Origin: Marinifilaceae bacterium | GTDB lineage: Bacteria > Bacteroidota > Bacteroidia > Bacteroidales > Marinifilaceae | Assembly: GCA_041725895.1 (NCBI GenBank) | Contig: JBGRQA010000005.1 | Span: forward strand, 141,134-205,133 | DNA length: 64,000 nucleotides | Direction of reading: 5' to 3' | Shown: piece by piece, positions 43,679-64,000 of the stretch | Position numbering within the stretch: position 1 is the first letter of the stretch | Layout: each line of letters opens with the position of its first letter | Position numbers and translations under genes: made by a program | The notes under the pieces: generated by a model | Told to the model about the DNA's origin: nothing | The model's input: the letters and a program-made list of their open reading frames with translations, nothing else | Databases searched by the model: none

Positions 43679-44980
43679 TTAAACATGCTCCGAAAAGAGA
43701 GCCCGTATCGGATTAAAAATACGTTGCAAGAGACGAATATCCTCCGTAATAATATCGGAAGCTCCCTCCATCTGTTGAGAGAAATCCAACTTCTTCCCAT
43801 AATTGGTTTCCAAACCATTAGTTAACCGGACTTCACAGCTATACTTTTGATCATCCGGAACCAAAGAGATGGATTGAATTTGTCCCTCCAGCATTCCATA
43901 TTCCATAAAGGGATAGTTATCCAGCTTAATATTAACCTTTTGGCCAACCTTTACCTTTCCGGCCCCCTGCAAGCCCAATTCAATTCGGGCAAAAATTTTG
44001 GTCGAATCTTCCGGTATAACCGTAAGAACACGTTCTCCCGCTTTCACCTGTTGGTTCAAACTCCAAAACTTGTTAAAACTTACGAATCCCTTAATCGGTG
44101 ACCGCAAAAGATACCGCTGTTCCCAAATATCAATTTGAGCCTTTAGATTATCGTAGGCTTGTACAAGAGAATTTTGCTTGGTTCTTAGAATATCTACATG
44201 AGACAATTCCAGGTCCATTATTTCTTGCTGAAGAGCTGAAATACTAATTTGTGTATTGGCAAGAGAGGTGCGGGCCCCATGAAAGGAGTAACTTTGATCC
44301 AAATAGGCTTTTTGCGATATTTGGTAATCAGCCAGTGCCAAAACGCCTTTACGATACAATACAGAATCCCTATGGAATTGCTGTTCCGCAATTTCGAGTT
44401 CCTTTTCGAGTATGTCTCTCTGTTGAAACAAGCGATTGTAATAAAGGTTGTATTTTGCAACCTGATCCTTTTTAGATTCAATTTTACGGGCATGATATTC
44501 CAAATCAATAAAGTCTTGATAATCCGAAAATTGCTTCAAAAATGAGGCATAGTAGCTTTGAATTTCTCCCAACTGATAGTTTTGAGTAAAATCGGTATCA
44601 ATCAACCCGTTAAAATCGGTAAAATAGCTTTGAAGCTGATCCAATTGCTTCCGTAATGAATTTACATCTTGTAATTTGCCGGAGTTTTCGATCAATGCAA
44701 GAATTTGACCAGGTTCCACCATCTGGTTCTCCTGCACAAGCAATTGATCGATAGTGCCGTTTACCTTAGCAACCATTTTAGCGGGAGGATTTTCAGTCGT
44801 CAAAATCACTTTGGCAGGAATAATATCAGGATACCTGAAAAAATAGCTTCCAACAATAATTATAAAAATAACAGTAAATATGAGGCTAATCCCCCTTCGG
44901 ATGATCCAGTGAGGAATATGGCCTAAAATTTCCTGTACCTCCTCACTACGAAGTTCTATATTATTCGGGTTTTGTGGCAT
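43679..44980 (-). CDS. HlyD-family secretion adaptor protein (bacteriocin/peptide export accessory)
   Basis: Single N-terminal TM, a long coiled-coil middle and a C-terminal beta-barrel/lipoyl-like region. It lies directly downstream of the C39-ABC exporter. Confidence 0.85.
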   Translation of the reverse strand: MPQNPNNIELRSEEVQEILGHIPHWIIRRGISLIFTVIFIIIVGSYFFRYPDIIPAKVILTTENPPAKMVAKVNGTIDQLLVQENQMVEPGQILALIENSGKLQDVNSLRKQLDQLQSYFTDFNGLIDTDFTQNYQLGEIQSYYASFLKQFSDYQDFIDLEYHARKIESKKDQVAKYNLYYNRLFQQRDILEKELEIAEQQFHRDSVLYRKGVLALADYQISQKAYLDQSYSFHGARTSLANTQISISALQQEIMDLELSHVDILRTKQNSLVQAYDNLKAQIDIWEQRYLLRSPIKGFVSFNKFWSLNQQVKAGERVLTVIPEDSTKIFARIELGLQGAGKVKVGQKVNIKLDNYPFMEYGMLEGQIQSISLVPDDQKYSCEVRLTNGLETNYGKKLDFSQQMEGASDIITEDIRLLQRIFNPIRALFSEHV

Positions 44981-45084
44981 CTAATACGGGTTTTATGTAT
45001 TTTTCGGGTAATATTGGCTTTGTTATACTTGATTTAGAATAGATTATTTGTTCTTTCTAAATTTTTGTTTAGAAAATCTACGTC

Positions 45085-47292
45085 CTAACCACCTAATTCC
45101 AATTGATTTTTTACAAGTCGGTAGTAGGCTCCCTCCATTAATGCCAACTCATCATGACTTCCTCTTTCCACAATCTGTCCTTTCTCAATGACTATGATTT
45201 GATCGGCATTTTTAACGGTACTTAATCGGTGAGCAACAACAACCACGGTTCTACCCTTGTTGAATTTTTCCAAATTCTCCATAATGGCTCTTTCATTGTT
45301 GGCATCCAAAGCGTTGGTTGCTTCATCAAAAAACAGATATTCGGGGTTTTTATATACTGCCCGGGCGATTAAAATCCGTTGCTTTTGTCCCTGACTTAAA
45401 CCATGACCATCAGATCCAATTTTAGTATTGAATCGCAAAGGTAATTTTTCGATAAAATCATGAATACAGGCAACCTGTACAGCGTGAAGCAATCGCTTCT
45501 TATCCACAATTTCATCACCAACAGCAATATTCCGGGCTATGGTATCTGAAAAAATGAACCCCTCCTGCATTACCACACCACAATTCTGTCGCCACATTGG
45601 GGAACTGTAGTTTTGAAGATCTACTCCCCCCACAGTAACCTGTCCCTTTGTAGGTGGATAAAAACCAAGCATGAGCTTAATCAGAGTGGTTTTTCCACTT
45701 CCGGAGGTTCCCACAATTGCTGTCGTCTTCCCTTTGGGAATATCCAATTGAATATTATCCAGAACCATTTCGGAATGAGGGCCCTCATACTGAAAACTCA
45801 CCTTGTCAATGATAATACTTCTATCCTCTGGCAACTCACGCAATTTCTCCTCCTCAAAATTCTCTTCATCCTCTTTTTCATGAATTTCGCCCAATCGTTC
45901 CATAGATATTTTAGCGTCTTGCCAGGAGTGAATAAACTGAATCATACTATCGATAGGAGAATTCAACTGCCCTATAATGTACTGGACTGCCAACATCATA
46001 CCTAAAGTCATTTGTCCGTCCAATACCGATTTGGCCGCCAAAAAAGTGATCAGAATGTTCTTGGTTTCGTTAAAAAACACCGAACCCGAAGTCTGGTACT
46101 GATTCAAAGACAGCCCCTGAATGCGAACACGAAACAACTGTGCCTGAATCTGTTCCCACTCCCAACGTTTCTGCTTCTCACAATTGTTCAGTTTAATTTC
46201 CTGCATTCCGGTAATCAACTGAACAATGTTGCTCTGGTTACTGGAGAGCTGGGCGAAGCGTTTGCCATCCAATTCCCTTCTTTTTCTTAGGAACAGGTTG
46301 ATCCAGGTAATATACAATGCACTACCCAAAACAAAAATCAGGAAGATTTGCAGGTTGTAAATGGCAAGAACCACTCCAAAAATAATCAGGTTGACAAAGG
46401 AAAAAAGTATATTAAGGGTAGAAGAAGTCAAAAAGCTTTCAATTCGGGTATGATCCTGGATTCGTTGCATCAAATCACCAATCATTTTGATATCGAAAAA
46501 GCCAATGGGAAGTTTCATCAACTTGATCAAAAAGTCGGAGATTAAGGAAATATTGATCCGAGTTGAAATGTGCAGGAGAATCCAGCTACGTATAAAATCA
46601 ACCGACATTCTACTGATAAACAGAAACAATTGGGCAACAAGAATCAAGTGAATGAAATTCAGATTCCGCGTATTGATCCCCACATCAACAATCGACTGCG
46701 TCAAAAAGGGAAAAATCAATTGCAACATACTCCCGAAAAGCATGCCCAAAAAGAGCTGAAACAGAAACTTTTTATAGGGTCTCAAATACTGAAGCAAAAA
46801 TCCGACCTTCTTCCTCTTGGAGCCTTTCTCATCTTCATTGGAAAAGAATTCAGGAGTTGTTTCCAAAAGCAAGCAGAGCCCCTTTTCCTCTCCCTGACTT
46901 TTGGTTGTAGCCCAGGATTTGGAGAACTCCTTTTCACTGTACTTCAACAAACCAGCCCCAGGGTCGGCTACATGAATCTCATAGCCCTTTTTCTTCTTCT
47001 CCACTTTGTGTACCACCACAAAATGGTTCTGCCCCCAATGAGCTACACAGGGTAATGGAGCCTCTTCAGCCAATTGCTTAAAACTTATACGTACTCCCAT
47101 GCTTTTCATGCCAATACTTTCAGCAGCATCGGCAATTCCAAGCATCGAAACTCCTTCGCGGGTAATATGGCTTCGATCACGGAGAGTTTGCAAGGTGTAA
47201 TTCTTACCATAATATTTAGCAATCATACGCAGGCAAGTGGGCCCGCAATCCATTGCATCTAGCTGAGTAAAATGGGGAAATCGTTTCTTCAA
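45085..47292 (-). CDS. peptidase C39 domain-containing ABC transporter (double-glycine leader cleavage and export)
   Basis: N-terminal C39 motif QLDAMDCGPTCLRMIAKYYG with a downstream NHFVVVH. Six TM helices. Walker A GTSGSGKTT, signature LSQGQKQR, Walker B YLFFDEAT. Confidence 0.93.
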   Translation of the reverse strand: MKKRFPHFTQLDAMDCGPTCLRMIAKYYGKNYTLQTLRDRSHITREGVSMLGIADAAESIGMKSMGVRISFKQLAEEAPLPCVAHWGQNHFVVVHKVEKKKKGYEIHVADPGAGLLKYSEKEFSKSWATTKSQGEEKGLCLLLETTPEFFSNEDEKGSKRKKVGFLLQYLRPYKKFLFQLFLGMLFGSMLQLIFPFLTQSIVDVGINTRNLNFIHLILVAQLFLFISRMSVDFIRSWILLHISTRINISLISDFLIKLMKLPIGFFDIKMIGDLMQRIQDHTRIESFLTSSTLNILFSFVNLIIFGVVLAIYNLQIFLIFVLGSALYITWINLFLRKRRELDGKRFAQLSSNQSNIVQLITGMQEIKLNNCEKQKRWEWEQIQAQLFRVRIQGLSLNQYQTSGSVFFNETKNILITFLAAKSVLDGQMTLGMMLAVQYIIGQLNSPIDSMIQFIHSWQDAKISMERLGEIHEKEDEENFEEEKLRELPEDRSIIIDKVSFQYEGPHSEMVLDNIQLDIPKGKTTAIVGTSGSGKTTLIKLMLGFYPPTKGQVTVGGVDLQNYSSPMWRQNCGVVMQEGFIFSDTIARNIAVGDEIVDKKRLLHAVQVACIHDFIEKLPLRFNTKIGSDGHGLSQGQKQRILIARAVYKNPEYLFFDEATNALDANNERAIMENLEKFNKGRTVVVVAHRLSTVKNADQIIVIEKGQIVERGSHDELALMEGAYYRLVKNQLELGG

Positions 47293-47647: not shown

Positions 47648-48982
47648 TTATTTAAGTGTGGATTCATAGTATGCTTCAAGATTTTTATTCAGCATTCCAG
47701 GGGCTTTCTCCATACACTGACATAAATTATACTCTCCAGCATGATAGAGATTTCGCATATTGTACCAAGTACATTTTCCATTACATATTGGCAAAAAGAA
47801 GCATTTCCTACATGTCGGATCATTATACCAACTACCACCTTCCATGTATTTATAAAACAAAGATGGGTTTGTCATTTTTTCTTGGTTTATATATCCCACA
47901 ATCCGACTTTTATCTGAGACATCATTCCAACATCTGTATATTTCGCCGACTGGACCGATAATATAGGAATTCAATTTAGTAGCGCAACATGTTTTACCAA
48001 GCACAAGTGAAGGATAAGTCGGAATATCAATCATTCCCTTTTGTCCCAATTCGTAGTGAAGTTCAGCAACCTCCTCACGAGGAATGGTCGGTGATTTCAC
48101 ATTTGTGTTGGTTGAATTTTCAAGTCTTATAATCCCAGGATAAATAATCAGATTCTTACTTGATGTGAAAGCTTTTATTTCAGAATATACTTGATAGTAA
48201 TCACCAATATTGGTTTTATCAATATTTACACGAACATGAAGTTCGGTTTCGGGTAACCTCTTGAGGATATTTTTAATATTATGAATAATCCTATTATAGG
48301 ATGAACCCTTTACATCACTTTTATCCGCCCGTAAAAGATTATGCCTTTTCTCGTTTCCATCTAAAGTTATCTGGATATTATCTAAAGGATATCGCTTAAA
48401 GAAATCAATGACTTCATCATTAAATAAATATCCATTGGTTATTATAGTGTGCTTTTTTAAGGGGATATCAACTTCTGAAGATAGTTTATTAAGAATATTT
48501 TGGATCTGTTCAAAAGCAAGAAGAGGTTCTCCTCCGTACCACGTGATATCCATCTCCTCCGCACTTTTATGTCTCTTAATAAAATTAAAAAGATCTCCAA
48601 TTACTTGATCCGTAATAATACCTGATCGTTTACCTCTTTCGAAACAATAGGGACAATCAAAGTTACAGTCTATTGTAGGTACAATTACAAGTCCCAACTT
48701 ATCCTTATTGTGTTTTCTACTCTGAGTATAGAATTGATGCTTCAAAACAAATATATCATCTGCTCCGTCGGAAACTATTATCCCATTCTCTTCTAACAAT
48801 TTAAAGGCATCTTCTGGCAATTCTCCTAATAGGGTAGGATCTGACTTACATTTTTCTATATAATTATAAAGCTCCTTTGAGAGCTCTAAAAAGGAATTAA
48901 AACAAGAGGAATAAACCAAATATTTTCCTTTTGAGGATACAAACAAATAAACATATCTTGAAATTATCTTCTTCGTATTCAT
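47648..48982 (-). CDS. radical SAM/SPASM-domain peptide maturase
   Basis: CNFDCPYC (CxxxCxxC) cluster after a roughly 100-aa N-terminal, possibly RRE-like, region. The Cys-rich C-terminus CCATK...GEIYRCWND...CRKCFFLPICNGKC fits a SPASM twitch/auxiliary cluster domain. Confidence 0.9.
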   Translation of the reverse strand: MNTKKIISRYVYLFVSSKGKYLVYSSCFNSFLELSKELYNYIEKCKSDPTLLGELPEDAFKLLEENGIIVSDGADDIFVLKHQFYTQSRKHNKDKLGLVIVPTIDCNFDCPYCFERGKRSGIITDQVIGDLFNFIKRHKSAEEMDITWYGGEPLLAFEQIQNILNKLSSEVDIPLKKHTIITNGYLFNDEVIDFFKRYPLDNIQITLDGNEKRHNLLRADKSDVKGSSYNRIIHNIKNILKRLPETELHVRVNIDKTNIGDYYQVYSEIKAFTSSKNLIIYPGIIRLENSTNTNVKSPTIPREEVAELHYELGQKGMIDIPTYPSLVLGKTCCATKLNSYIIGPVGEIYRCWNDVSDKSRIVGYINQEKMTNPSLFYKYMEGGSWYNDPTCRKCFFLPICNGKCTWYNMRNLYHAGEYNLCQCMEKAPGMLNKNLEAYYESTLK

Positions 48983-49084: not shown

Positions 49085-49279
49085 TTATTTTGTAGTTGGA
49101 TCCGTTGGTTTGGTTGGTTTGGTTTCATTTTTATTCCCAATCCAACAGTCACAAGAACAATCTTGTTCATCAGCAACTGAGGTAACACCACCAAAAACAT
49201 TAACTAATTCATCTTGATTAAGTACGTCAGAGTTTTTAATAACTCTTACCGAAAAATCATTTTTCCCTTTTTTAGTCAT
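49085..49279 (-). CDS. RiPP precursor peptide B (GG leader; CSCDCWIGN core; Pro/Thr tail)
   Basis: 64 aa: MTKKGKNDFSVRVIKNSDVLNQDELVNVFGG|VTSVADEQDCSCDCWIGNKNETKPTKPTDPTTK. Paralogue of peptide A. I place the start at the internal ATG at 49279. Confidence 0.85.
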   Translation of the reverse strand: MTKKGKNDFSVRVIKNSDVLNQDELVNVFGGVTSVADEQDCSCDCWIGNKNETKPTKPTDPTTK

Positions 49280-49322
49280 AATATTATAATTAAAACTATT
49301 TGTACACTTGATTATCTGCAAC

Positions 49323-49514
49323 TTACTTTGTAGTAGGATCCGTTGGTTTAGTTGGTGTGCTATTACTATTACCAATCCAACAATCACATGTACATTCTGG
49401 TTCAGCTGCATCTGAATTTAAACCACCAAAAACATTAACTAATTCGTCTTGGTTAAGCACGTCTGAGTTATTGATAACTTTTACCGAAAACTCTTTTTGA
49501 TCTTTTTTAGTCAT
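49323..49514 (-). CDS. RiPP precursor peptide A (GG leader; CTCDCWIGN core; Pro/Thr tail)
   Basis: 63 aa: MTKKDQKEFSVKVINNSDVLNQDELVNVFGG|LNSDAAEPECTCDCWIGNSNSTPTKPTDPTTK. Confidence 0.88.
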   Translation of the reverse strand: MTKKDQKEFSVKVINNSDVLNQDELVNVFGGLNSDAAEPECTCDCWIGNSNSTPTKPTDPTTK

Positions 49515-49663: not shown

Positions 49664-49867
49664 TTAATGTTCTGTAAGAATATAAGTTCGGAGACTACGA
49701 GAATAAAAAATATCATTTCCATAATCTCTTAAATAATCAATCATACGATACAAAGTACGCTCAGAGACTCCTATTTTAAATGCCAATTCCTTAGGAGTTC
49801 CGGTAGCTTTAAGAGAAGCCAATTTTTTTATTCTTTCCAATTTCTCGAAATCTTCAAAAATATTCAT
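49664..49867 (-). CDS. small helix-turn-helix protein (67 aa), first gene of the precursor operon
   Basis: GTPKELAFKIGVSERTLYRMIDYL is an HTH_11/DeoR-N-like motif. Promoter motif copy A lies 38 nt upstream. Confidence 0.7.
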   Translation of the reverse strand: MNIFEDFEKLERIKKLASLKATGTPKELAFKIGVSERTLYRMIDYLRDYGNDIFYSRSLRTYILTEH

Positions 49868-49905: not shown

Positions 49906-49936
49906 CTTTATTCCGAATTATTTAAAAAGGTAACCC
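49906..49936 (-). promoter_or_regulatory. alternative-sigma-type promoter motif, copy A
   Basis: Minus strand: GGGTTACCTTTT-TAAATAATTC-GGAATAAAG, 38 nt upstream of the HTH gene ATG. Confidence 0.65.
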
Positions 49937-50474
49937 AAATCATTTAATCTTTTTAATGATATATACATCATTAACATATTACAATGTTGCAATAATTGCT
50001 CCCACAAAATAATGGCAATTTTTTCACCCATTTATGTTAATGAAAAAAGTTCAGAACATAAGAAGCAACACTCGATATTACAATCAAGAAGTCTTAGGTG
50101 GATAAGTTTAGAAATCTCCTTTATTCGTATAACGCAACCTACTTTTCAACCGTATGGGTAAGGGAATGGTTTGTACCTACTTTCTATTAACTCCGTATCA
50201 AGTCCGTATAAATACGGAGTTAATACTACCTTGAGTAAAACAAAATATACAGCAGGTACAGACAAGATGCAGAGAAATACTAACGCACGTACAAAAACGA
50301 TGCGCCTCGCCTGAATGAGGCAATAGCACAACAGGAAAGGGAAAAAGATCAGACTAAAAAAAACTGTCAATCCGGGATTGGATTCAGCCCTCCCGCTCTA
50401 TCGAAACGGGATTAAAACCATACTTTATATTTTGAATAAGTATAGTTTTATTAGCGGAATTAGATGTTGACATG

Positions 50475-50573: not shown

Positions 50574-51788
50574 TTAGGATTCTGATTTCAGAGTCGCCAC
50601 AACAACAATTGGATTATCTTCACTCTTCACATGGGAAACCAATTCCTTTAACTCGTCCTGCTTCTGTTGGGAAACAGCATTTCCCCATTGAAAATCCTCC
50701 TTCTGAAAGCTTTCCTTGAAAGCGGAAGCATTCCGCCAATTGCACAAATATTTGTCCTGATATATCCGCTTGGGCCAAAAGGTTTGGCCTCCATCCAAAT
50801 CATTCAAAAGGCCATAGGATCCGCTTGCTGTTTGCACAGAATAGAATTCCTTATTCACTTTATCATACAATCCGGTTATTATCTTTCCCTTGTAATCAAA
50901 ACTCATACAGGAGACAAACAACCATTTTTCACTCTCGTACACAATAGGATTCAAATATTTCCCTGCATAGTTTTGGTAACGCTTCATATCCTCTACGTAT
51001 TCTATTCGTTTCTCGACGGGGATAAATTTTTCGCCTAGCTCCAATTTATAAATCGGTTTCATTTCAGTTGGGCTGGCACAGGTAAAAATGGTATCACCAT
51101 ATAGTTTCCGGAAATGAAGCTTATTTTGATAATGATAGAAATACCGATCCGGAATCATCCAGAAAACACCGTTCCCATGAACAGTAAAACGTTCATGATT
51201 TGTAAATCCTTTGATACTATCCAATTCAACACCAAAAGAGATAGCCTTTATTTCTTTCTCTCCCTGCGGATTTCGCACATGAAGCAGAAAGGAAGTGGAA
51301 TCGATCCAATCAAAAGCCATTCCCGGCTGATCAGGAACAGGAAATTCCTCTATATAATTTCCTAAAAAATCGTACACAACCAGTTTTTGACGTCCTCCTG
51401 CACTAACGTATACCCGTTGAAGTTCCTGATTTACGGAAAGATGGTAAACTCTGGCATATTCACCAGGCCCCTTACCTATTGCTCCCACTTTACGAATAAA
51501 TTTTCCTGCCCGGTTGAATTGCATGACTGCATCGGAAGAATGGGTAAAAATAAATTGATCGGTAACAATCACATCTCGTATTCTCCCTAAATAGGAATCG
51601 TCATTCGTTTCCAGTGGAATGTATTGAATATCTTCAGCAAGAGCCGATAAATTTACACTTCGGCAATTGTCAAGATTCGCATTCAGTTCAACGTGGATGA
51701 TACCATCAACTTCCTTTTTGGAAGAGGTAGATCCACAGCTCCAAAGAAGGGTGGAAAGAAGAAAAAGAAAAACAGTTCGTAGAAGCAT
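50574..51788 (-). CDS. lipoprotein, probable 6-bladed beta-propeller family (BF3164/DUF5128-like)
   Basis: Lipobox LLWSCGS, and a beta-rich 404-aa body with repeated aromatic/Gly blades. The family assignment is from memory and weak. Confidence 0.45.
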   Translation of the reverse strand: MLLRTVFLFLLSTLLWSCGSTSSKKEVDGIIHVELNANLDNCRSVNLSALAEDIQYIPLETNDDSYLGRIRDVIVTDQFIFTHSSDAVMQFNRAGKFIRKVGAIGKGPGEYARVYHLSVNQELQRVYVSAGGRQKLVVYDFLGNYIEEFPVPDQPGMAFDWIDSTSFLLHVRNPQGEKEIKAISFGVELDSIKGFTNHERFTVHGNGVFWMIPDRYFYHYQNKLHFRKLYGDTIFTCASPTEMKPIYKLELGEKFIPVEKRIEYVEDMKRYQNYAGKYLNPIVYESEKWLFVSCMSFDYKGKIITGLYDKVNKEFYSVQTASGSYGLLNDLDGGQTFWPKRIYQDKYLCNWRNASAFKESFQKEDFQWGNAVSQQKQDELKELVSHVKSEDNPIVVVATLKSES

Positions 51789-51835
51789 GGTTAGTTAGAT
51801 TTAAAAACATAAAATATTATTCCAGAAATATAAAA

Positions 51836-51872
51836 CGAAAAAAGCAGGATCTTTCAAAGGAAAGTCCTGCTT
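51836..51872 (-). terminator. rho-independent terminator after the LytTR gene
   Basis: On the minus strand, AGCAGGA-loop-TCCTGCT is followed by TTTTTT. Confidence 0.6.
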
Positions 51873-51905
51873 TACAACAATTCATTTAATTTCACTTTTA
51901 ACAAT

Positions 51906-52268
51906 CTAATGGTGAACTCTTAGATCCAAACTCAATTTTTCCAACAATTCCTGCTTTCGCCGCCTTGCTACCGGTATGGAAGCCCCATCCTGAAGTATCA
52001 ATTGATCGGAACCAAAATTGTACTCCCGAACCTGTGAAAGGTTCACAAGAAAAGAGCGATGAATTCGGAAAAAGCCCAGAGAGTTAATCCGTTCCTCCAC
52101 CTTGGCGATGGATTGAGAAATGGTTAAACTCTCTCCATTTTTGAGGAAAATAACACTATAATTCTCCGCTGCCCGACAATATAAAATTTCATAAAGCCAA
52201 AGTAAATGCAGCCTTCGCTCCCCAGAAAAAGTGACCTTTTTGTGATAGTCAATAGTTAATTCGAGCAT
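51906..52268 (-). CDS. stand-alone LytTR DNA-binding domain protein (no receiver domain)
   Basis: 120 aa. ...ILYCRAAENYSVIFLKNGESLTISQSIAKVEERI...FFRIHRSFLVNLSQV is the LytTR signature. Confidence 0.85.
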   Translation of the reverse strand: MLELTIDYHKKVTFSGERRLHLLWLYEILYCRAAENYSVIFLKNGESLTISQSIAKVEERINSLGFFRIHRSFLVNLSQVREYNFGSDQLILQDGASIPVARRRKQELLEKLSLDLRVHH

Positions 52269-52300: not shown

Positions 52301-52331
52301 CTTTATTCCCAAAATTGAGAAAAGGTAACCC
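52301..52331 (-). promoter_or_regulatory. alternative-sigma-type promoter motif, copy B
   Basis: Minus strand: GGGTTACCTTTT-CTCAATTTTG-GGAATAAAG, 32 nt upstream of the LytTR gene ATG. Confidence 0.65.
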
Positions 52332-52671
52332 TAAATTCCATTATGTTTGACAAAAATCGAAAAAATAATGAGGAAACAGCTGGCTTTCACCTCAAAAATA
52401 TTTACACTAGAAGAATAGGCATAAGAAAAATCTCATTCTATAGGAAAGTTCTTGTGCAAAATTAGGGGAGCAAAGGAGGAACTTCAAAAATAACTTTTTC
52501 GAAATCTGAATTTAGCAACTTTGAAAAAACATTATAGCCAAACAAAAAGAAAGAAAACAAGGTAGGAACAAAGATCAACTATAGTTACTCTGAACTCATA
52601 TATAAATCAACCCAACAAAGTATCTGAATTTCTTCCTGTAAATGTAACCCACTAAAAAGAATTCAATCGGT

Positions 52672-57761: not shown

Positions 57762-58039
57762 ATCATTCAATTCGGGAATAACCACCTCCGCCCGAAATTC
57801 TAAACTATAAACCAATCTTCTTATTTTTGATTCTATTTTTAGACTGTCTTTGACAAGATAATATTGAATCGAACAAATCTCAAAGATTAATACTATATTG
57901 TGACTGTTTATGTTAATGAAAGCAAACTACTCATGTATAAAAGCATATTATTGATAAAAAATAAGCTTTTAATAATCATCATTAAATAAGATGGTTATCA
58001 TTCCACAATCGCGTTTTTTTATATTTTTTTTCAAGTTAA

Positions 58040-58070
58040 GGGTTACCTTTTAGTCAAAAGGAGAATAAAG
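58040..58070 (+). promoter_or_regulatory. alternative-sigma-type promoter motif, copy C (in front of the sigma gene itself)
   Basis: GGGTTACCTTTT-AGTCAAAAGG-AGAATAAAG, ending only 10 nt before the sigma gene ATG. Confidence 0.65.
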
Positions 58071-58080
58071 GGGTAGAAAT

Positions 58081-58641
58081 ATGGATTACACTACCGAAGC
58101 AATACTCGAGGGTATCAGTAGAAGCAATAACGATGTATTAAAATACGTATACAGCAAGTTTTACCCAAGTATTAGAAACTTTATAGAAAATAATAATGGA
58201 AATGAAGAGGACGCACGTGATCTTTTTCAAGAGGCCATTATTGTAATCTATCGTAAAATGAAAAAAGAACCTCTGGTTCTCAATTGTAACTTTAAAACCT
58301 ATATCTATTCGGTTTGTAAGTTACTATGGCTAAAACAACTGGAGAAACGAAGACAAAACAATGAGGTCTCCGACGATTCCCTATTGGATAACCGTTTGGA
58401 CGAAGTAACCCAAAACTGGGAGGAAACGGAACGATACAGGTTGTATCAGAAACACTTCCTTCGACTGGGAGACGATTGCCAAAAAGTTCTTCGACTCTCC
58501 CTAGAGAAAGTCTCCCTGAAGAAAATAGCCGAAATTATGGGCTACAAAGGGGAAAAATATGCGAAAAAAAGAAAATTTCAGTGTAAACAACAACTTGTGG
58601 AAAGTATAAAAAATGATAACCAATATAATGAAGTACAATGA
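58081..58641 (+). CDS. sigma-70 family (ECF-like) RNA polymerase sigma factor
   Basis: 186 aa. Region-2-like DARDLFQEAIIVIYRKM...YIYSVCKLLWL, and region-4 HTH CQKVLRLSLEKVSLKKIAEIMGY. Confidence 0.8.
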   Translation: MDYTTEAILEGISRSNNDVLKYVYSKFYPSIRNFIENNNGNEEDARDLFQEAIIVIYRKMKKEPLVLNCNFKTYIYSVCKLLWLKQLEKRRQNNEVSDDSLLDNRLDEVTQNWEETERYRLYQKHFLRLGDDCQKVLRLSLEKVSLKKIAEIMGYKGEKYAKKRKFQCKQQLVESIKNDNQYNEVQ

Positions 58642-59390
58642 TGAATGAAAAGTTAAATTTTGAACGAATCGAGGAATTTCTGGATGGGGACTTAACCGGA
58701 GATGAATTGATGGAATTCGAACAGGATCTACTCGACGATTCCGACCTACAAATGGAGTTAGACCTTCATGAAGAAATCAATATGGCAATCATGGAGGATG
58801 ACGTTATGGACCTACGGGCGAAACTGGAAGCCATAGAACCTCCTGCAAGTGATAAGAAGAGACGATTATCACTATTCCTAGGAAAATGGCAATTGGCTGC
58901 AGCATCGTTAATCCTAATGATTGGTATTAGTAGCTTGTTCTACCTGTTGGGAGACCGCACCTATACCAATGAGGAAATCTACAGCAGTTACTACAAACCG
59001 TACAATGTTGTTATCAACACCCGTTCTGCTGAAGGAAGTACCAATGACATACTGGTAAATGCCTTGCAAAGTTACGAAGCAAAAGACTACCGGACTGCAT
59101 TGAGCTTATTCAAAGATGTTCTTGACAAAGACAGCTTGAATGTTACCGGAAACTTCTATTCAGGAGTTTCAAACATCGAAATTAAAGAGTATGATGCCGC
59201 GAATGTAAACTTTACTCGTGTAATCAAACATAAAAACAATTTATTCCTGGAGCAATCAGAATGGAATTTAGCCTTCTGTTACCTCATGACAGAAGAAAAA
59301 GAAAAAGCAATTAAGCAATTTCAATACATAGCAGCAAGCAACAGCTACTACAAGTCCAAAGCCCAGGAGATTTTAAATAAGCTGGAATAG
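58638..59390 (+). CDS. anti-sigma-factor-like single-pass membrane protein with extracytoplasmic TPR-like domain
   Basis: ATGA overlap with the sigma stop codon. It has an acidic N-terminal helix region (IEEFLDGDLTGDELMEFEQDL), a TM segment (WQLAAASLILMIGISSLFYLL) and a C-terminal TPR-like domain. Confidence 0.6.
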   Translation: MMNEKLNFERIEEFLDGDLTGDELMEFEQDLLDDSDLQMELDLHEEINMAIMEDDVMDLRAKLEAIEPPASDKKRRLSLFLGKWQLAAASLILMIGISSLFYLLGDRTYTNEEIYSSYYKPYNVVINTRSAEGSTNDILVNALQSYEAKDYRTALSLFKDVLDKDSLNVTGNFYSGVSNIEIKEYDAANVNFTRVIKHKNNLFLEQSEWNLAFCYLMTEEKEKAIKQFQYIAASNSYYKSKAQEILNKLE

Positions 59391-59852: not shown

Positions 59853-62717
59853 CTATCTATTCAATTTCCTTCTCCGGAAGAGGTAGTAAATTGGAAAGCA
59901 AAAAAGTAGTAGTAAAGCCAAATATTTCCCTTTGGAAACTACTCCTCCATCATACATAACCGAAGTATCGCCCAAAGTAACATAGCCCGACCAAAAATAG
60001 GGATGAGCTTTTAAAGGATCCGCATTTTTAAGGTATTCCATTTTTGCTGCCCTCAAAGCGGCGTCTTTGGACATACCTTCCCCCAGAAATTGATAGAAAT
60101 AGGTCATTAAACTGGATCCGGATTTATCCTCTACAGTCCACAATGTCATCACAATACTGGGACAACCTGCATAGAAAAAACCACGTGCCAAACTCATCAC
60201 CCCTTCCCCTTTCAACAATTTTCCATCGCCGGTATTGCATGCACTCAAAACAACCATTCGCGCATTAAAATTCATATTATAAATCTCATGCGTATTCAAC
60301 AAGCCATCCTCGCCAGCAGACTTATTTTGTGTAAACACCAACTTCGAGAACATGGGATTCTCATCATCGATAATGGTATGCATGGCCAAATGCAAAACGT
60401 CGTAGTTGATTGCATTCTTCTTAAAATTTTCCTCTGTAGCCAATTCATCCACATACAAATCGCCTTCAATTACTTTCGAAATATTCTTAACCTCCTCTTT
60501 TACACCAGGCAAAGGAAATAGCTTATCCCGATAAGCAGCTCTCTCCACATACAGTATAGAGTCACTCACATCGTTATAACTGGGAGCGAAAGCCAACAAT
60601 ACTTTTGAGGATTCGTGCTCTTTCTGGGTATTTTTAAAACCAAGAGTTGCCGAATTTTGATAAGTAATGGTATGATCCTTCAGTAAGTAATCAAGATTCC
60701 TGTAATTGATCTTACTTGAATCCCCATTCTGTTTTAACAGTACACCAAAGGGCAAATAGGCCAACTTATCATCGGGAACTATGACCAATTTTTTCTGATG
60801 AATCATAGAATCAAAAGAAAATAGTAATTGTTGGTAGAGCTGATGTGCCGAATGGATATAGGTTTTATAGTATTCAAAACTATTTTGTGAAAAATCGTTG
60901 GTTTTTAGACACTTCCGAACAGATTCAATGTTCTTATCCAACTCAGATTTATTAATGGATTGGCGCTGAATCTGAAAATCATTGGAAGAAATGATGAAAG
61001 AGAAGAGCGCCGAATCGGAAATGGAATACTCCACAAATACCTCTCCCTCCCCCAAATGTTCCTGAAGTTCCTTAACATCAATGGTTCGGGCATCATATTT
61101 CAAAGCAAAGTAATCAGGATACTCCAGCTCGAAGGTTTTCACCATCTCCTCGTACTGAACATTCAGGTTGAAGAGCTCATTCTGCCATTCAGCTATTTTT
61201 TTCCGGCTGGGCTTCAGCTTCTTTCTTTCCTCATAAACAGCAGCCCTGTATTTGGCAATCCCCTTCCTTACCTCCTGTTCCTGTTTCTGCAGTTCGGCAG
61301 GAATTCCCCCAAATTCTTTGGCGTTTACATCTCGCAGAGAGGCCATTAAACTGGCTGACTTGGAGCGCTCAGCATAGTAGAAGGCTTTCTCCTTATAGAT
61401 ATACTCCCCGGTCTCCTTGTATAGCTGAAGCGCTAATTCAATCGATTTGGTATAGGTTTCCTTCTCGTTTTCAGAAAGTATTAACCGGCTCTCCTCGTCC
61501 TGGTAGGCGATTCGAATTCGGTCAATAGTAACCAGGCACAGATCAAAAGTTTCCAATGCTATCTTCAGATCCTTAATCTCCCTGGTATCCTTAGCATACA
61601 ATTCATAGAAGGCGTAGGCTTTCCCCTTTAAACAGGAAAGAATCGAAATCTGAGGATCAATCTGTTCCTGAATTGGATTGTGATAAATATTATTATCGGA
61701 ATAATTCTCCAACTCCGAATTCAGGGATTTTTGGAAATAATCAAGCGCCTTTCTTCTTTTTCCCATCTTTAAGTAAAAGGTCCCGTAATTGTTTAAGCAT
61801 TGGGCAATATAGGGATTTGATCCTCCCATATTTTTTGAATAAACCTGGTAAGCTTTTCCAAGATTAAGGAGAGCCTCCTCATTTCTCTCATGAGCAAAGA
61901 GGAATACAGCGAAATTCATGTACAAATTCCCTAGGAGATAAGAATCTATAGAGTTATTCCGAATAGTCTCTTCAATACTCAGTTTGTGATAATAGATAGC
62001 TTTCTCAAAATCTTTCAGATGGTTGTAGCAATTGGCCATATTGGTATAGTTACTACTCAAATCCTTTACCCTGAATTTTTTCTTCAGATCCAAACTTTCG
62101 GAATAGTAACTCAAGGCTTTACCCCATTGCTTCTTGTTCTTACAAATAATCCCCAAATTATTATACAATAAGGCCAACCAGCGTAAATTCTTCTTAGAAT
62201 CCTTTTTTAAATTAAACAAAGCCTCGTTGTAGAACTTCTCCGCTTTCAAAATATCTCCCCTGAAAGTATAGATATTCCCCTGATTCAAGTTTATCAACCC
62301 CAATTTGTTAAAATCATTTTTGAAATGAAGCTGTACCAAATTCTCCGTCCTCTGATAGAATTGAAGCGCCTCCTCCATTTTCCCTAATTTTTTTTTGAGT
62401 ACTCCAAAATTCATATAAATCCGGTAGGCCAAGTTGGGATCAAAGTCAGAGCTTTGTTCTAACAACTCAACTGTTTTCTGAAAGGATTCCTCTGCATTTA
62501 TAAAATCACCATTTCTCAAAGCTCCAACGGATTGATCATATAAAGCTTTCAATGAAGTATCCTGCTGAAGAATCGATTTCTCATGAGTAGGAAAATGGGG
62601 GGCTGACCCCACTGCATAGCCATCCCTGCCCATCAAAAAACAGAAGAGGAGCAGTAGAAATAAAAAAATCGTACTTTTTTTTCTTACAAGGGTGTCAAAA
62701 GCTAAGAACCTGAACAC
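59853..62717 (-). CDS. TPR-repeat CHAT-domain protein (caspase-like protease fold) with signal peptide and C-terminal TM anchor
   Basis: About 450 aa of TPR units, then a CHAT domain with a His/Cys dyad context (VLHLAMHT ... VVLSACNTGDG), then a terminal TM (YLALLLLFCFPIYYLF). It apparently uses a GTG start, so the start is uncertain. Confidence 0.8.
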   Translation of the reverse strand: MFRFLAFDTLVRKKSTIFLFLLLLFCFLMGRDGYAVGSAPHFPTHEKSILQQDTSLKALYDQSVGALRNGDFINAEESFQKTVELLEQSSDFDPNLAYRIYMNFGVLKKKLGKMEEALQFYQRTENLVQLHFKNDFNKLGLINLNQGNIYTFRGDILKAEKFYNEALFNLKKDSKKNLRWLALLYNNLGIICKNKKQWGKALSYYSESLDLKKKFRVKDLSSNYTNMANCYNHLKDFEKAIYYHKLSIEETIRNNSIDSYLLGNLYMNFAVFLFAHERNEEALLNLGKAYQVYSKNMGGSNPYIAQCLNNYGTFYLKMGKRRKALDYFQKSLNSELENYSDNNIYHNPIQEQIDPQISILSCLKGKAYAFYELYAKDTREIKDLKIALETFDLCLVTIDRIRIAYQDEESRLILSENEKETYTKSIELALQLYKETGEYIYKEKAFYYAERSKSASLMASLRDVNAKEFGGIPAELQKQEQEVRKGIAKYRAAVYEERKKLKPSRKKIAEWQNELFNLNVQYEEMVKTFELEYPDYFALKYDARTIDVKELQEHLGEGEVFVEYSISDSALFSFIISSNDFQIQRQSINKSELDKNIESVRKCLKTNDFSQNSFEYYKTYIHSAHQLYQQLLFSFDSMIHQKKLVIVPDDKLAYLPFGVLLKQNGDSSKINYRNLDYLLKDHTITYQNSATLGFKNTQKEHESSKVLLAFAPSYNDVSDSILYVERAAYRDKLFPLPGVKEEVKNISKVIEGDLYVDELATEENFKKNAINYDVLHLAMHTIIDDENPMFSKLVFTQNKSAGEDGLLNTHEIYNMNFNARMVVLSACNTGDGKLLKGEGVMSLARGFFYAGCPSIVMTLWTVEDKSGSSLMTYFYQFLGEGMSKDAALRAAKMEYLKNADPLKAHPYFWSGYVTLGDTSVMYDGGVVSKGKYLALLLLFCFPIYYLFRRRKLNR

Positions 62718-62802
62718 AAGATTTTTGCTGGGTTTTGTTAGTATTAGGAAATCTAAATATAGAGGAAAAATTTTACTTTTTTGAAAAAAACTTAGTTTTC
62801 GA

Positions 62803-62833
62803 GGGTTACCTTTTCGTGATTTTCGGAATAAAG
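62803..62833 (+). promoter_or_regulatory. alternative-sigma-type promoter motif, copy D
   Basis: GGGTTACCTTTT-CGTGATTTTC-GGAATAAAG, 42 nt upstream of small peptide gene 1. Confidence 0.65.
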
Positions 62834-62875: not shown

Positions 62876-62983
62876 ATGAAAAATTTCGAAACCCTAAACC
62901 AAGAAGAGCTGCAGGAAGTTAAAGGCGGATACAATCCTTACGAAATGAGAGAAATCGATGTCACCGATGACGCTATTGTTTAA
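62876..62983 (+). CDS. 35-aa double-glycine-leader peptide 1 (acidic 17-aa core)
   Basis: MKNFETLNQEELQEVKGG|YNPYEMREIDVTDDAIV. It is absent from the ORF track because it is under 60 aa. Support comes from the paralogue comparison. Confidence 0.75.
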   Translation: MKNFETLNQEELQEVKGGYNPYEMREIDVTDDAIV

Positions 62984-63017
62984 TCACTATATTAATTGAT
63001 CAAAATTTCCCTATACC

Positions 63018-63125
63018 ATGAAAAATTTTGAAACCCTAAACCAAGAAGAGCTACTGGAAGTAAAAGGTGGATACAATCCTTATGAAATGAGAGAAATCGA
63101 TGTTACTGATGATGCTATCGTATAA
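63018..63125 (+). CDS. 35-aa double-glycine-leader peptide 2 (identical core)
   Basis: MKNFETLNQEELLEVKGG|YNPYEMREIDVTDDAIV. Against copy 1 it has 10 synonymous and 1 non-synonymous difference (leader Q13L). Confidence 0.75.
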   Translation: MKNFETLNQEELLEVKGGYNPYEMREIDVTDDAIV

Positions 63126-63167
63126 AAAACTCTCAGAACTAATTTAATTAAAAAATATTTGTTTTCA

Positions 63168-63198
63168 GGGTTACCTTTTGATGGAAAACGGAATTAAG
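63168..63198 (+). promoter_or_regulatory. alternative-sigma-type promoter motif, copy E
   Basis: GGGTTACCTTTT-GATGGAAAAC-GGAATTAAG, 31 nt upstream of the histidine kinase ATG. Confidence 0.6.
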
Positions 63199-63229: not shown

Positions 63230-64000
63230 ATGGAGAAACGTCCAACATATAAGGAATTGGAAAGGCAACTGAAAGATGCTTTGCACAGGGCCCAGGAAGC
63301 CGAAGAGCTGAAAAATGCTTTTTTGGCCAACATGTCCCACGAGATACGCACGCCAATGAATGCGATTATCGGAGCGTCGGAATTGTTGCGAGACCAAAAC
63401 CTTACGGTGGCCGAACGAAATGAGTTTGCCAATATTCTCTCTACGAGCAGCCGTGAATTGTTGGAATTGTTTAACCGAATTATAGAATTGTCTGAGATGG
63501 AATCCGGACAATGCAAATTGAACGAAGCCGAATTGGATCTACAGATTCTTTTTCTGAAACTGTATTCTAAATACGAGGTCAGGATTAAGGAGGAGAAAAA
63601 GAACATAACATTATCCTACACACAGCAAATACCGGATATCTCCTTTTTCACCGATTCGGATAAACTGAACAAGGTATTAAGCCACCTTTTAGATAATGCC
63701 GTCAAGTATACAACCAATGGCAATATCGAATTTGGATGCAACCTACAGGATCATAATAATCTTTTATTCTACGTAAAAGACACAGGTCCGGGAATTAGCA
63801 TCAAAGAACAAGAAAATATTTTCCAGAAATTCCGGCAAATTGATAATTCCTATACCAGGGAATATTCCGGGGCTGGTTTGGGCTTAAGTTTAAGTAAAGA
63901 AACCGTAAAAATATTAGGCGGACGATTATATATTGACTCAATACCCGGCGAGGGTTCCATTTTTTACTTTACCCTGCCGTTGAAATATTCGGAAACGAAC
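63230..64000 (+). CDS. histidine kinase with no N-terminal sensor or TM domain (3' end outside the window)
   Basis: My own translation from ATG 63230 is open to the window end. It shows a coiled-coil N-terminus, H-box FLANMSHEIRTPMN, N-box LLDNAVKYT, G1 DTGPGI and G2 GAGLGLS. The ORF track lists only antisense ORFs here. Confidence 0.85.
   Translation, partial: MEKRPTYKELERQLKDALHRAQEAEELKNAFLANMSHEIRTPMNAIIGASELLRDQNLTVAERNEFANILSTSSRELLELFNRIIELSEMESGQCKLNEAELDLQILFLKLYSKYEVRIKEEKKNITLSYTQQIPDISFFTDSDKLNKVLSHLLDNAVKYTTNGNIEFGCNLQDHNNLLFYVKDTGPGISIKEQENIFQKFRQIDNSYTREYSGAGLGLSLSKETVKILGGRLYIDSIPGEGSIFYFTLPLKYSETN

Follow-up and report, generated by a model that had tools for sequence, protein, structure and literature searches.

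A conserved double-glycine-leader peptide family of the Bacteroidales encoded with an ECF sigma factor, an anti-sigma-like protein and a TPR-CHAT protease, and its candidate role as their signal

Peptide pheromones with a double-glycine (GG) leader are textbook biology in Gram-positive bacteria. For the C39-peptidase ATP-binding cassette (ABC) exporters of Gram-negative bacteria, roles beyond toxin export are still without direct evidence, and HetC of filamentous cyanobacteria is thought to export a regulatory peptide (PMC10986499). The anti-sigma factor DdvA of Myxococcus xanthus has a periplasmic TPR-CHAT part that was proposed to be a signal-activated site-1 protease, cleaving itself before RseP acts; its signal is unknown, and DdvA-like proteins have been reported only in Myxococcota and one Comamonas species (PMC11506125). 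The TPR-CHAT protease of the craspases acts on putative anti-sigma factors and shows genetic linkage to a sigma factor of the extracytoplasmic function (ECF) type (PMC11506125; PMC10028731). Here a 64,000-nucleotide stretch of a Marinifilaceae bacterium (Bacteroidota; contig JBGRQA010000005.1, positions 141,134 to 205,133), referred to as the window, is described in which two tandem genes for short GG-leader peptides lie among genes for an ECF sigma factor, an anti-sigma-like protein, a TPR-CHAT protease and a histidine kinase without a sensor domain. The peptides are more likely the signal of this sigma/CHAT switch than the bacteriocins that their database names suggest.

The two peptide genes of the window are the following.

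62876..62983, + strand: peptide gene 1, leader MKNFETLNQEELQEVKGG (62876-62929) and core YNPYEMREIDVTDDAIV (62930-62980)
63018..63125, + strand: peptide gene 2, core identical to that of gene 1, Q13L in the leader

The genes are in tandem with starts 142 bp apart, and each encodes 35 aa; the translation of the pair is MKNFETLNQEEL[Q/L]EVKGG-YNPYEMREIDVTDDAIV. A codon-by-codon comparison showed that the copies differ at 11 codons. Ten of the changes are synonymous, four of them in the leader and six in the core, and the only non-synonymous one is Q13L (CAG>CTG), in the leader. By the Nei-Gojobori method the proportions of synonymous and non-synonymous differences are pS 0.488 and pN 0.012. The probability that at least 10 of 11 changes would be synonymous under neutrality is 7.3e-7, and that at least 10 of 11 would fall at codon position 3 is 1.3e-4. 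Homology between the flanks is limited to about 10 nt upstream (CCCTATACC), and the rest of the upstream sequence and everything beyond the stop are unrelated. Because conservation is confined to the coding sequence while the flanks have diverged to random, the constraint acts on the protein. By this comparison both ORFs are functional genes for GG-leader peptides, read in a real and constrained frame. The 17-aa core contains five acidic residues, one basic residue and no Cys, for a net charge of -4. A first-pass annotation of the window had already given these coordinates, the tandem layout, the tally of changes with six in the core and the composition of the core, all of which were reproduced exactly, and its claim of a constrained frame was borne out by the synonymous excess and the diverged flanks. 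It had also called the genes unannotated, which is not so: GenBank carries both as 'bacteriocin class II family protein' (MFA8433925.1 and MFA8433926.1) from a Marinifilaceae metagenome-assembled genome (MAG). On two Logan contigs (L001 924-1082; L002 358-516) peptide gene 2 was mis-called with an upstream extension that runs into the end of gene 1 and gives a product of 52 aa (P0003).

Single-peptide searches did not reveal relatives. A word-indexed protein search with the 52-aa mis-called extension and an exhaustive phmmer search with a single peptide against 1.84 billion representatives each returned only the peptide itself. Loci of relatives were fetched instead through the divergent neighbour, a 954-aa TPR-CHAT protein, by synteny in reference genomes (loci and contigs carry labels of the form L004), and a family profile was built on an alignment of 25 peptides (A2). 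The profile search gave 112 members with intact frames from several genera and recovered window peptide 1 at E=4e-10. The family is thus visible only through synteny and then through a profile. Its members carry the names 'bacteriocin', 'ComC/BlpC family leader-containing pheromone/bacteriocin', 'natural product precursor' or 'hypothetical' in their sources, which include PGAP, UniRef and JGI. A 397-aa 'phosphoglycerate kinase' (P0008) sits in a 90%-identity cluster of 30-aa peptides, probably as a clustering artefact.

All Marinifilaceae loci that include the region upstream of the CHAT gene carry 1-10 tandem GG-leader genes of 30-33 codons in the same position and orientation, for example MKNFEIVSQEELQNIKGG-INEMTDVSICDDCIV in Labilibaculum or MKNFEVLNTEDLKNIKGG-YQDKCINEDILV in Marinifilum. 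Arrays are present as well in Bacteroidales MAGs with a CHAT protein of no more than 36-42% identity, where cores such as ...IDEDILLPDPEP... occur. An acidic-hydrophobic motif, [DE][DE]-x-[ILV]-[VLI], is present in 101 of the 107 unique cores; the cores have a mean net charge of -3.9, and 59 of 107 are without Cys. Core length is 12-17 aa in Marinifilaceae. About half of the unique cores stop 3-4 residues after the acidic pair, and the others continue in a Pro/acid-rich tail of 8-29 residues. In several arrays the copy nearest the kinase gene has a heavily diverged leader (e.g. MNTFEKLTTQELDQVLGG) and a preserved core (L006 9009-9110; L010 8943-9035; L033 8120-8212), and looks like an older paralog kept beside young identical copies. 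The spacers of about 75 nt in array units of about 167 bp (L009, L012, L019, L033) are conserved as well as the genes, at 90-100% identity between units, a sign of concerted evolution, of recent amplification or of a function in the spacer itself. One locus, L017 (4035-6129, 8598-9085), has a distinct core type (GGGDDIPTTGQPIKD...) and three extra genes between the C39-ABC gene and the kinase gene; one of these looks by sequence like a ThiF/E1-type adenylyltransferase, and the locus may be a modified variant of the cassette.

Chance ORFs or a non-coding repeat would account for a length of only 35 codons and for single-peptide searches that match nothing but the query. This explanation is hardly credible and is already refuted by the comparative data, since it leaves the synonymous excess (P=7e-7) and the 112 members with intact frames unexplained. 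An Rfam scan around the pair gave no credible family match, which also speaks against a non-coding element. A terminator search around the pair found none, nor any between peptide gene 2 and the kinase gene.

The partners of the peptide genes in the window are the following.

58081..58641, + strand: ECF sigma factor (TIGR02937 61.3 against a cutoff of 42.9; orthologs 73-81% identical and syntenic)
58638..59390, + strand: single-pass anti-sigma-like protein, whose frame overlaps the end of the sigma gene
59853..62717, - strand: TPR-CHAT caspase-like protease, divergent from the peptide genes (Pfam CHAT 6.7e-59)
63230..64000, + strand: sensor-less histidine kinase, truncated at the window end (coiled coil, HisKA and HATPase_c; orthologs 282-296 aa)

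Searches with the window proteins (tblastn) showed that the ECF sigma, anti-sigma, TPR-CHAT and histidine kinase genes co-occur across loci. The Marinifilaceae order is sigma, anti-sigma, CHAT, peptides, kinase. The distant MAGs have instead (HlyD, C39-ABC ...) kinase, anti-sigma, peptides, CHAT, sigma, so these genes stay together through rearrangement although their order changes. A reciprocal test started from six profile-found peptides that lay outside the CHAT-anchored search. Five of the six have the sigma gene, a divergent TPR-CHAT gene and a peptide array on their contig, and those five contigs, where long enough, also encode a 251-256-aa anti-sigma-like protein and a 282-296-aa HisKA/HATPase kinase; a C39-ABC gene lies about 3 kb away in one of these peptide-anchored loci. 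In the sixth, from Ancylomarina longa, the contig end cuts the locus and the adjacency of peptide and kinase genes is kept. The association of peptides and cassette holds both ways, as the CHAT-anchored and the peptide-anchored searches agree. Comparative genomics thus places the peptides in a conserved Bacteroidales family found in one cassette with an ECF sigma factor, an anti-sigma-like protein, a TPR-CHAT protease and a sensor-less kinase. About 1-4 kb past the kinase gene, the distant cassettes L036, L038, L040, L043 and L044 encode another sigma-70-family protein, of 187-188 aa with regions 2 and 4, and behind its gene comes an ORF of 132-147 aa. All of these but L043 also contain DUF6249 genes, one or two each, and a Peptidase_S9 gene follows in four of them.

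Peptides with a GG leader have hydrophobic residues at positions -4, -7, -12 and -15 and acidic residues at -8/-9. The window leader follows this consensus with V-4, L-7, L-12, F-15, E-8 and E-9, and the GG-leader model TIGR01847 scored peptide 1 at 19.1 bits against a cutoff of 15.7 (relatives 18.7-19.2); peptide 2, which carries Q13L, was absent among the TIGR01847 matches listed. No curated model covers the core, and the matches to Bacteriocin_IIc, ComC, TIGR04149 and leader_Chryseo are all below threshold and aligned to the leader only. The candidate exporter genes of the window are the following.

45085..47292, - strand: C39-peptidase ABC exporter (peptidase-containing ABC transporter, PCAT), the only C39 domain in the window
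43679..44980, - strand: HlyD-family membrane fusion protein, the exporter's partner

The window thus encodes one functional-looking C39-ABC exporter with its HlyD partner (43679-47292), and C39-ABC/HlyD genes lie within the cassette at L017, L020, L022 and L043. Because the exporter lies inside the same cassette in these distant relatives, C39-ABC/HlyD is the likely export route for the peptides, which would be cleaved after the GG. The first-pass annotation had named the sole C39 exporter of the window for this task and had recognised a GG leader, and both proposals agree with these findings.

The GG leader, the Bacteriocin_IIc match (PF10439, E=5e-5), an apparent co-regulation with a radical S-adenosylmethionine (rSAM) operon for a ribosomally synthesised and post-translationally modified peptide (RiPP), and the use of 'bacteriocin' for family members by PGAP, UniRef and JGI could all mean that the peptides are ordinary class II bacteriocins, exported by the C39 protein, with neighbours that regulate their production. 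However, the Pfam match extends only over leader residues 1-18, on positions 1-18 of the 59 in the profile, and scores 23.6 against a gathering threshold of 27.1. Class II bacteriocins are typically cationic, amphipathic peptides of 25-60 aa encoded beside an immunity gene, whereas the mature window peptide would have 17 aa and the cores are short in Marinifilaceae and strongly acidic, as the family mean shows. No immunity-like gene is adjacent, the neighbours being a protease and a kinase, and every partner in the cassette is a signalling protein. Arrays with as many as 10 near-identical copies suggest gene dosage and not toxin diversity. A bacteriocin function is quite improbable on these grounds, and the earlier view of the peptide as a signal and not a bacteriocin is upheld by the short acidic cores and by the regulators that stand in place of an immunity gene.

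The window contains four GG-leader ORFs, and the other two are Cys-rich precursors (49085-49514) that adjoin an rSAM/SPASM enzyme. The leaders of the two kinds are alike (TLNQEELQEVKGG vs VLNQDELVNVFGG), a resemblance that had been pointed out before and is real. Together with a weak match to TIGR04149, the model of rSAM-modified RiPP precursors, it might suggest that the peptides are extra precursors for the rSAM/SPASM maturase 13 kb away. This is very improbable: TIGR04149 scores only 13.9 against a cutoff of 25, the core is without Cys, like more than half of the family cores (59 of 107), the maturase is adjoined by its own Cys-rich precursors, and arrays occur at the CHAT locus with or without an rSAM gene in the fetched flanks.

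A promoter motif connects the peptide genes with the sigma factor. It has the form GGGTTACCTTTT-N10-GGAATAAAG; in the window there are four exact copies of the 13-mer AGGGTTACCTTTT and a fifth with a single mismatch, each with a GGAATAAAG-like sequence 10 nt later. All five copies are correctly oriented and lie 40-110 nt before a start codon. The copies and the genes behind them are the following.

49908..49937, - strand: motif copy A, before the helix-turn-helix (HTH) gene that heads the rSAM-RiPP string
49664-49867, - strand: HTH gene, head of the co-directional string after copy A
49085-49514, - strand: two Cys-rich GG precursors, in the copy A string
47648-48982, - strand: rSAM/SPASM enzyme, in the copy A string, which runs on to the C39-ABC and HlyD genes
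52303..52332, - strand: motif copy B, before the LytTR gene
51906-52268, - strand: LytTR-only DNA-binding protein, 120 aa, no receiver domain
58039..58068, + strand: motif copy C, directly before the ECF sigma gene (predicted autoregulation)
62802..62831, + strand: motif copy D, ECF-type (AGGGTTACCTTTT-N10-GGAATAAAG), about 45 nt upstream of peptide gene 1
63167..63196, + strand: motif copy E, before the kinase gene

Copy D stands where the first-pass annotation had placed it. Wherever a Marinifilaceae locus covers the regions concerned, the motif is kept in two places, immediately before the sigma gene and immediately before the first gene of the array, and each array has a single copy (array-upstream motif in L004-L013, L019 and L033). 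In Labilibaculum manganireducens (L004) it also precedes an operon of HTH, Cys-rich GG precursor and rSAM genes, as in the window. Because ECF sigma factors are typically autoregulated, the motif is most simply read as the promoter that the sigma factor itself uses, with the peptide array in its predicted regulon. At L023 (7937-9283) the same promoter-like motif precedes a gene that lies just upstream of CHAT and encodes a secreted protein of 426 aa. A 404-aa DUF5128 six-bladed beta-propeller protein is encoded after the LytTR gene (window 50574-52268, - strand).

The TPR-CHAT protease is the one gene that always accompanies the peptides; it had been overlooked in the earlier statement that no modifying enzyme is adjacent. 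Its H779/C826 dyad is invariant in 52 homologs. The protein begins with a signal or anchor helix, clear as a signal peptide in the orthologs, and ends in a hydrophobic anchor to which a basic tail is attached; both are conserved, and from them the body is predicted to be extracytoplasmic. In the GenBank model of the protein (926 aa, P0127) the start lies 27 residues downstream of the ORF's GTG codon (window 62634-62717, - strand); the public start codon is probably mis-called, since the signal/anchor segment that is clear in the orthologs would be lost. The TPR part has diverged faster (33-40% identity) than the protease part (68-74%), in step with the variable peptide cores. The TPR domain, a conceivable docking site for acidic peptides, has a net charge of +11 in the window, with inconsistent values across orthologs.

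An AlphaFold2 model of the protein (predicted local distance difference test 84, predicted template modelling score 0.77) was compared with solved structures by Foldseek, which gave Csx29 as the best match (E=2.4e-15), DdvA next (5.5e-12) and then separase. A sequence search against solved structures returned generic TPR proteins only, with no detectable similarity to DdvA, so that the structural class of the CHAT protein is seen only by fold comparison. The cassette resembles the DdvS/DdvA system in its ECF sigma factor, single-pass anti-sigma-like protein and predicted periplasmic TPR-CHAT body with a His/Cys dyad, in the match of the model to the DdvA structures 8rw5 and 8rot (E≈1e-11 to 1e-12), and in the proposed logic, in which a signal-activated CHAT cut would be the site-1 step before intramembrane proteolysis. 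Unlike in DdvA, the TPR-CHAT protein is a separate membrane-anchored protein, encoded on the opposite strand in the window and by a separate gene in all relatives, and the anti-sigma-like protein has a small periplasmic TPR domain of its own. The host phylum also differs, being Bacteroidota, and the cassette encodes a candidate signal, the GG peptide array, as well as a soluble kinase. With the type III-E CRISPR craspase (Csx29 with Csx30 and an ECF sigma factor) the cassette shares the fold of its protease and the linkage to an ECF sigma factor; a TPR-CHAT protease that is switched on by a bound partner and directed at anti-sigma factors is here a proposal. The craspase is cytoplasmic and activated by target RNA on Cas7-11, whereas the cassette protease is predicted to be extracytoplasmic with a small exported peptide as its candidate partner, and CRISPR genes were not noticed around the cassette.

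Cleavage after Asp or Asn is common among caspase-fold (clan CD) proteases, and the recognition site of asparaginyl endopeptidase ligases is Asx with a short hydrophobic tail behind it. The most conserved core residues are the two acidic ones that immediately precede x-[IL]-[VLI], and the 3-29 residues that follow this pair resemble a removable follower. The protease, with its dyad intact, might then be a maturation enzyme that cuts after the conserved Asp, removes the short follower and perhaps ligates or cyclises the peptide like other clan-CD enzymes, to yield a secreted natural product whose production the sigma and anti-sigma factors only regulate. This is the main rival of a signalling role, although an unlikely one. 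It does not explain the constant presence of the anti-sigma and kinase genes, and the peptide promoter, which appears to be the sigma factor's own, fits a feedback loop at least as well. We know of no CHAT protein that is a ligase or cyclase. Furthermore, the known CHAT proteases do not cut after Asp: separase cleaves after Arg and craspases cleave after Met or Leu (PMC11506125).

The anti-sigma-like protein is predicted to have an acidic N-terminal cytoplasmic domain, one transmembrane (TM) helix (roughly residues 85-106) and, in the periplasm, a TPR domain of some 145 aa. It aligns across 22 loci, and its match to zf-HC2 is weak. Residues ~130-136, STNDILV (window 59026-59046), form the start of the first periplasmic TPR helix, and orthologs have a semi-conserved [DN]-[ILM]-[LM]-[VAT] there. 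The peptide, whose end in family members reads ...[DE]D-I-L-V, may mimic the NDILV segment, or the similarity may be due to chance. A parallel exists in separase-securin, where a protease of the TPR-CHAT type is held by a pseudosubstrate peptide; fold class and a short acidic linear motif are common to both. By analogy a decoy or pseudosubstrate relation between the anti-sigma [DN]-[ILM]-[LM]-V and the peptide end is conceivable, although a four-residue pattern could be chance. Separase-securin differs in being a eukaryotic, cytoplasmic system of cell-cycle control.

The kinase is soluble, with HisKA from residue 28 and no sensor, TM or receiver domain. The first-pass annotation had implied that it is the sensor; as a soluble protein of about 285 aa that consists of HisKA and HATPase only, it cannot, as judged from its domains, be a peptide receptor of the ComD/AgrC type. 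A conserved stand-alone receiver protein of about 126 aa is encoded about 2 kb past the kinase gene in Marinifilaceae loci (L006 6119-6499; L009 5983-6366; L013 5971-6351; L033 5187-5570; L042 2941-3321), with the genes for RuvB and a small membrane protein in between, and is a possible phosphorylation partner of the kinase. The streptococcal ComC/BlpC circuits (ComAB/BlpAB, ComD/BlpH, ComE/BlpR) have a GG peptide, a C39-ABC exporter and positive feedback, all of which are present or predicted here. The apparent co-regulation with a bacteriocin-like/RiPP operon and the kinase and LytTR genes in the predicted regulon are further similarities, and PGAP names some family members 'ComC/BlpC family'. 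The polytopic membrane kinase and receiver-LytTR regulator of those circuits are replaced by a kinase without a membrane sensor and a LytTR protein without a receiver, and transduction is predicted to run through the ECF sigma factor, the anti-sigma-like protein and the protease. The host is a Gram-negative member of the Bacteroidota, and the ComC models score below their cutoffs (PF03047 20.2 against 20.4; NF033214 15.3 against 50). Filamentous cyanobacteria offer another Gram-negative lineage with both a C39-ABC exporter (HetC, a PCAT) and a CHAT protease (HetF, after which the CHAT domain is named). The two are not encoded in one cassette and involve no ECF sigma factor, and to our knowledge HetC has no GG-leader substrate.

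Taken together, these comparisons suggest that an exported acidic peptide, itself sigma-dependent, is a ligand or substrate of the TPR-CHAT/anti-sigma switch, a proposal to which we give an even chance. The promoter type of the sigma factor (motif D) would drive transcription of the peptide pair, and C39-ABC/HlyD would cut after the GG and export the acidic 17-mer. In the periplasm or outside the cell, the peptide would act through its conserved acidic-hydrophobic end (...[DE]-D-x-[IL]-V), either by binding to or being cleaved by the TPR-CHAT protease or by binding the periplasmic TPR domain of the anti-sigma-like protein. We infer that it thereby controls anti-sigma proteolysis, by activation or inhibition, and hence the release of the sigma factor. 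The freed sigma factor would drive its own operon, the peptide pair (positive feedback), the kinase gene, the LytTR gene and the HTH/rSAM-RiPP genes that run into the exporter genes. A more specific form, in which the circuit is one of peptide autoinduction resembling quorum sensing and the exported GG peptide is sensed, instead of by a membrane kinase, by the TPR-CHAT protein as a ligand-gated site-1 protease on the ECF anti-sigma factor, is tentative and we lean against it.

Several observations weigh against a signalling role. Sigma/anti-sigma/TPR-CHAT systems without GG peptides are found at L023, L026, L028 and L030, so that the switch does not need peptides in general. The exporter is 13 kb from the peptide genes in the window and no outer-membrane factor was identified, so that the peptide may reach the periplasm only, in which case self-sensing would take the place of quorum sensing. 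The free C-terminus cannot be a universal recognition element, because the motif is followed by a tail of 8-29 aa in distant relatives, and the proposed scheme assigns no function to the sensor-less kinase. A shared promoter motif was also sought in the distant clade (L036, L038, L040), where the stretches upstream of the sigma gene and of the array share only GTACCT(T/C)T, with inconsistent spacing and no statistical weight, and this was not used. The dN/dS values within the arrays of relatives were set aside as coding evidence, since whole units including spacers are 90-100% identical and represent young duplicates or concerted evolution; as low dN/dS among such young copies is weak evidence, the window pair is the informative pair. 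Finally, three Logan contigs (SRR11296587-89) are identical to the window DNA and carry no evolutionary information.

Of the first-pass interpretation as a whole, the coding potential, leader, exporter and 'signal not toxin' view stand, while the annotation status and the kinase as sensor do not, and the multi-genus cassette of ECF sigma factor, anti-sigma factor and protease had been missed. The literature on CHAT, ECF and double-glycine systems in Bacteroidetes, Marinifilum and Labilibaculum contained no description of the cassette, and since many subscription-journal papers fell outside the search this absence is not proof of novelty. The cassette is built from known kinds of parts, and a candidate signal, exporter, protease, anti-sigma factor, sigma factor and recognisable promoter are found together in one locus. 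The name 'bacteriocin', which over 100 database entries probably owe to their leader alone, is likely to be wrong for them. The cassette occurs in the cultured genera Marinifilum, Labilibaculum and Ancylomarina, which makes both the role of a Gram-negative C39 exporter and the signal of a TPR-CHAT protein directly testable. If the autoinduction form of the proposal is true, peptide signalling in bacteria would have a newly recognised wiring in this locus, and CHAT-linked sigma switches their first identified class of signal.

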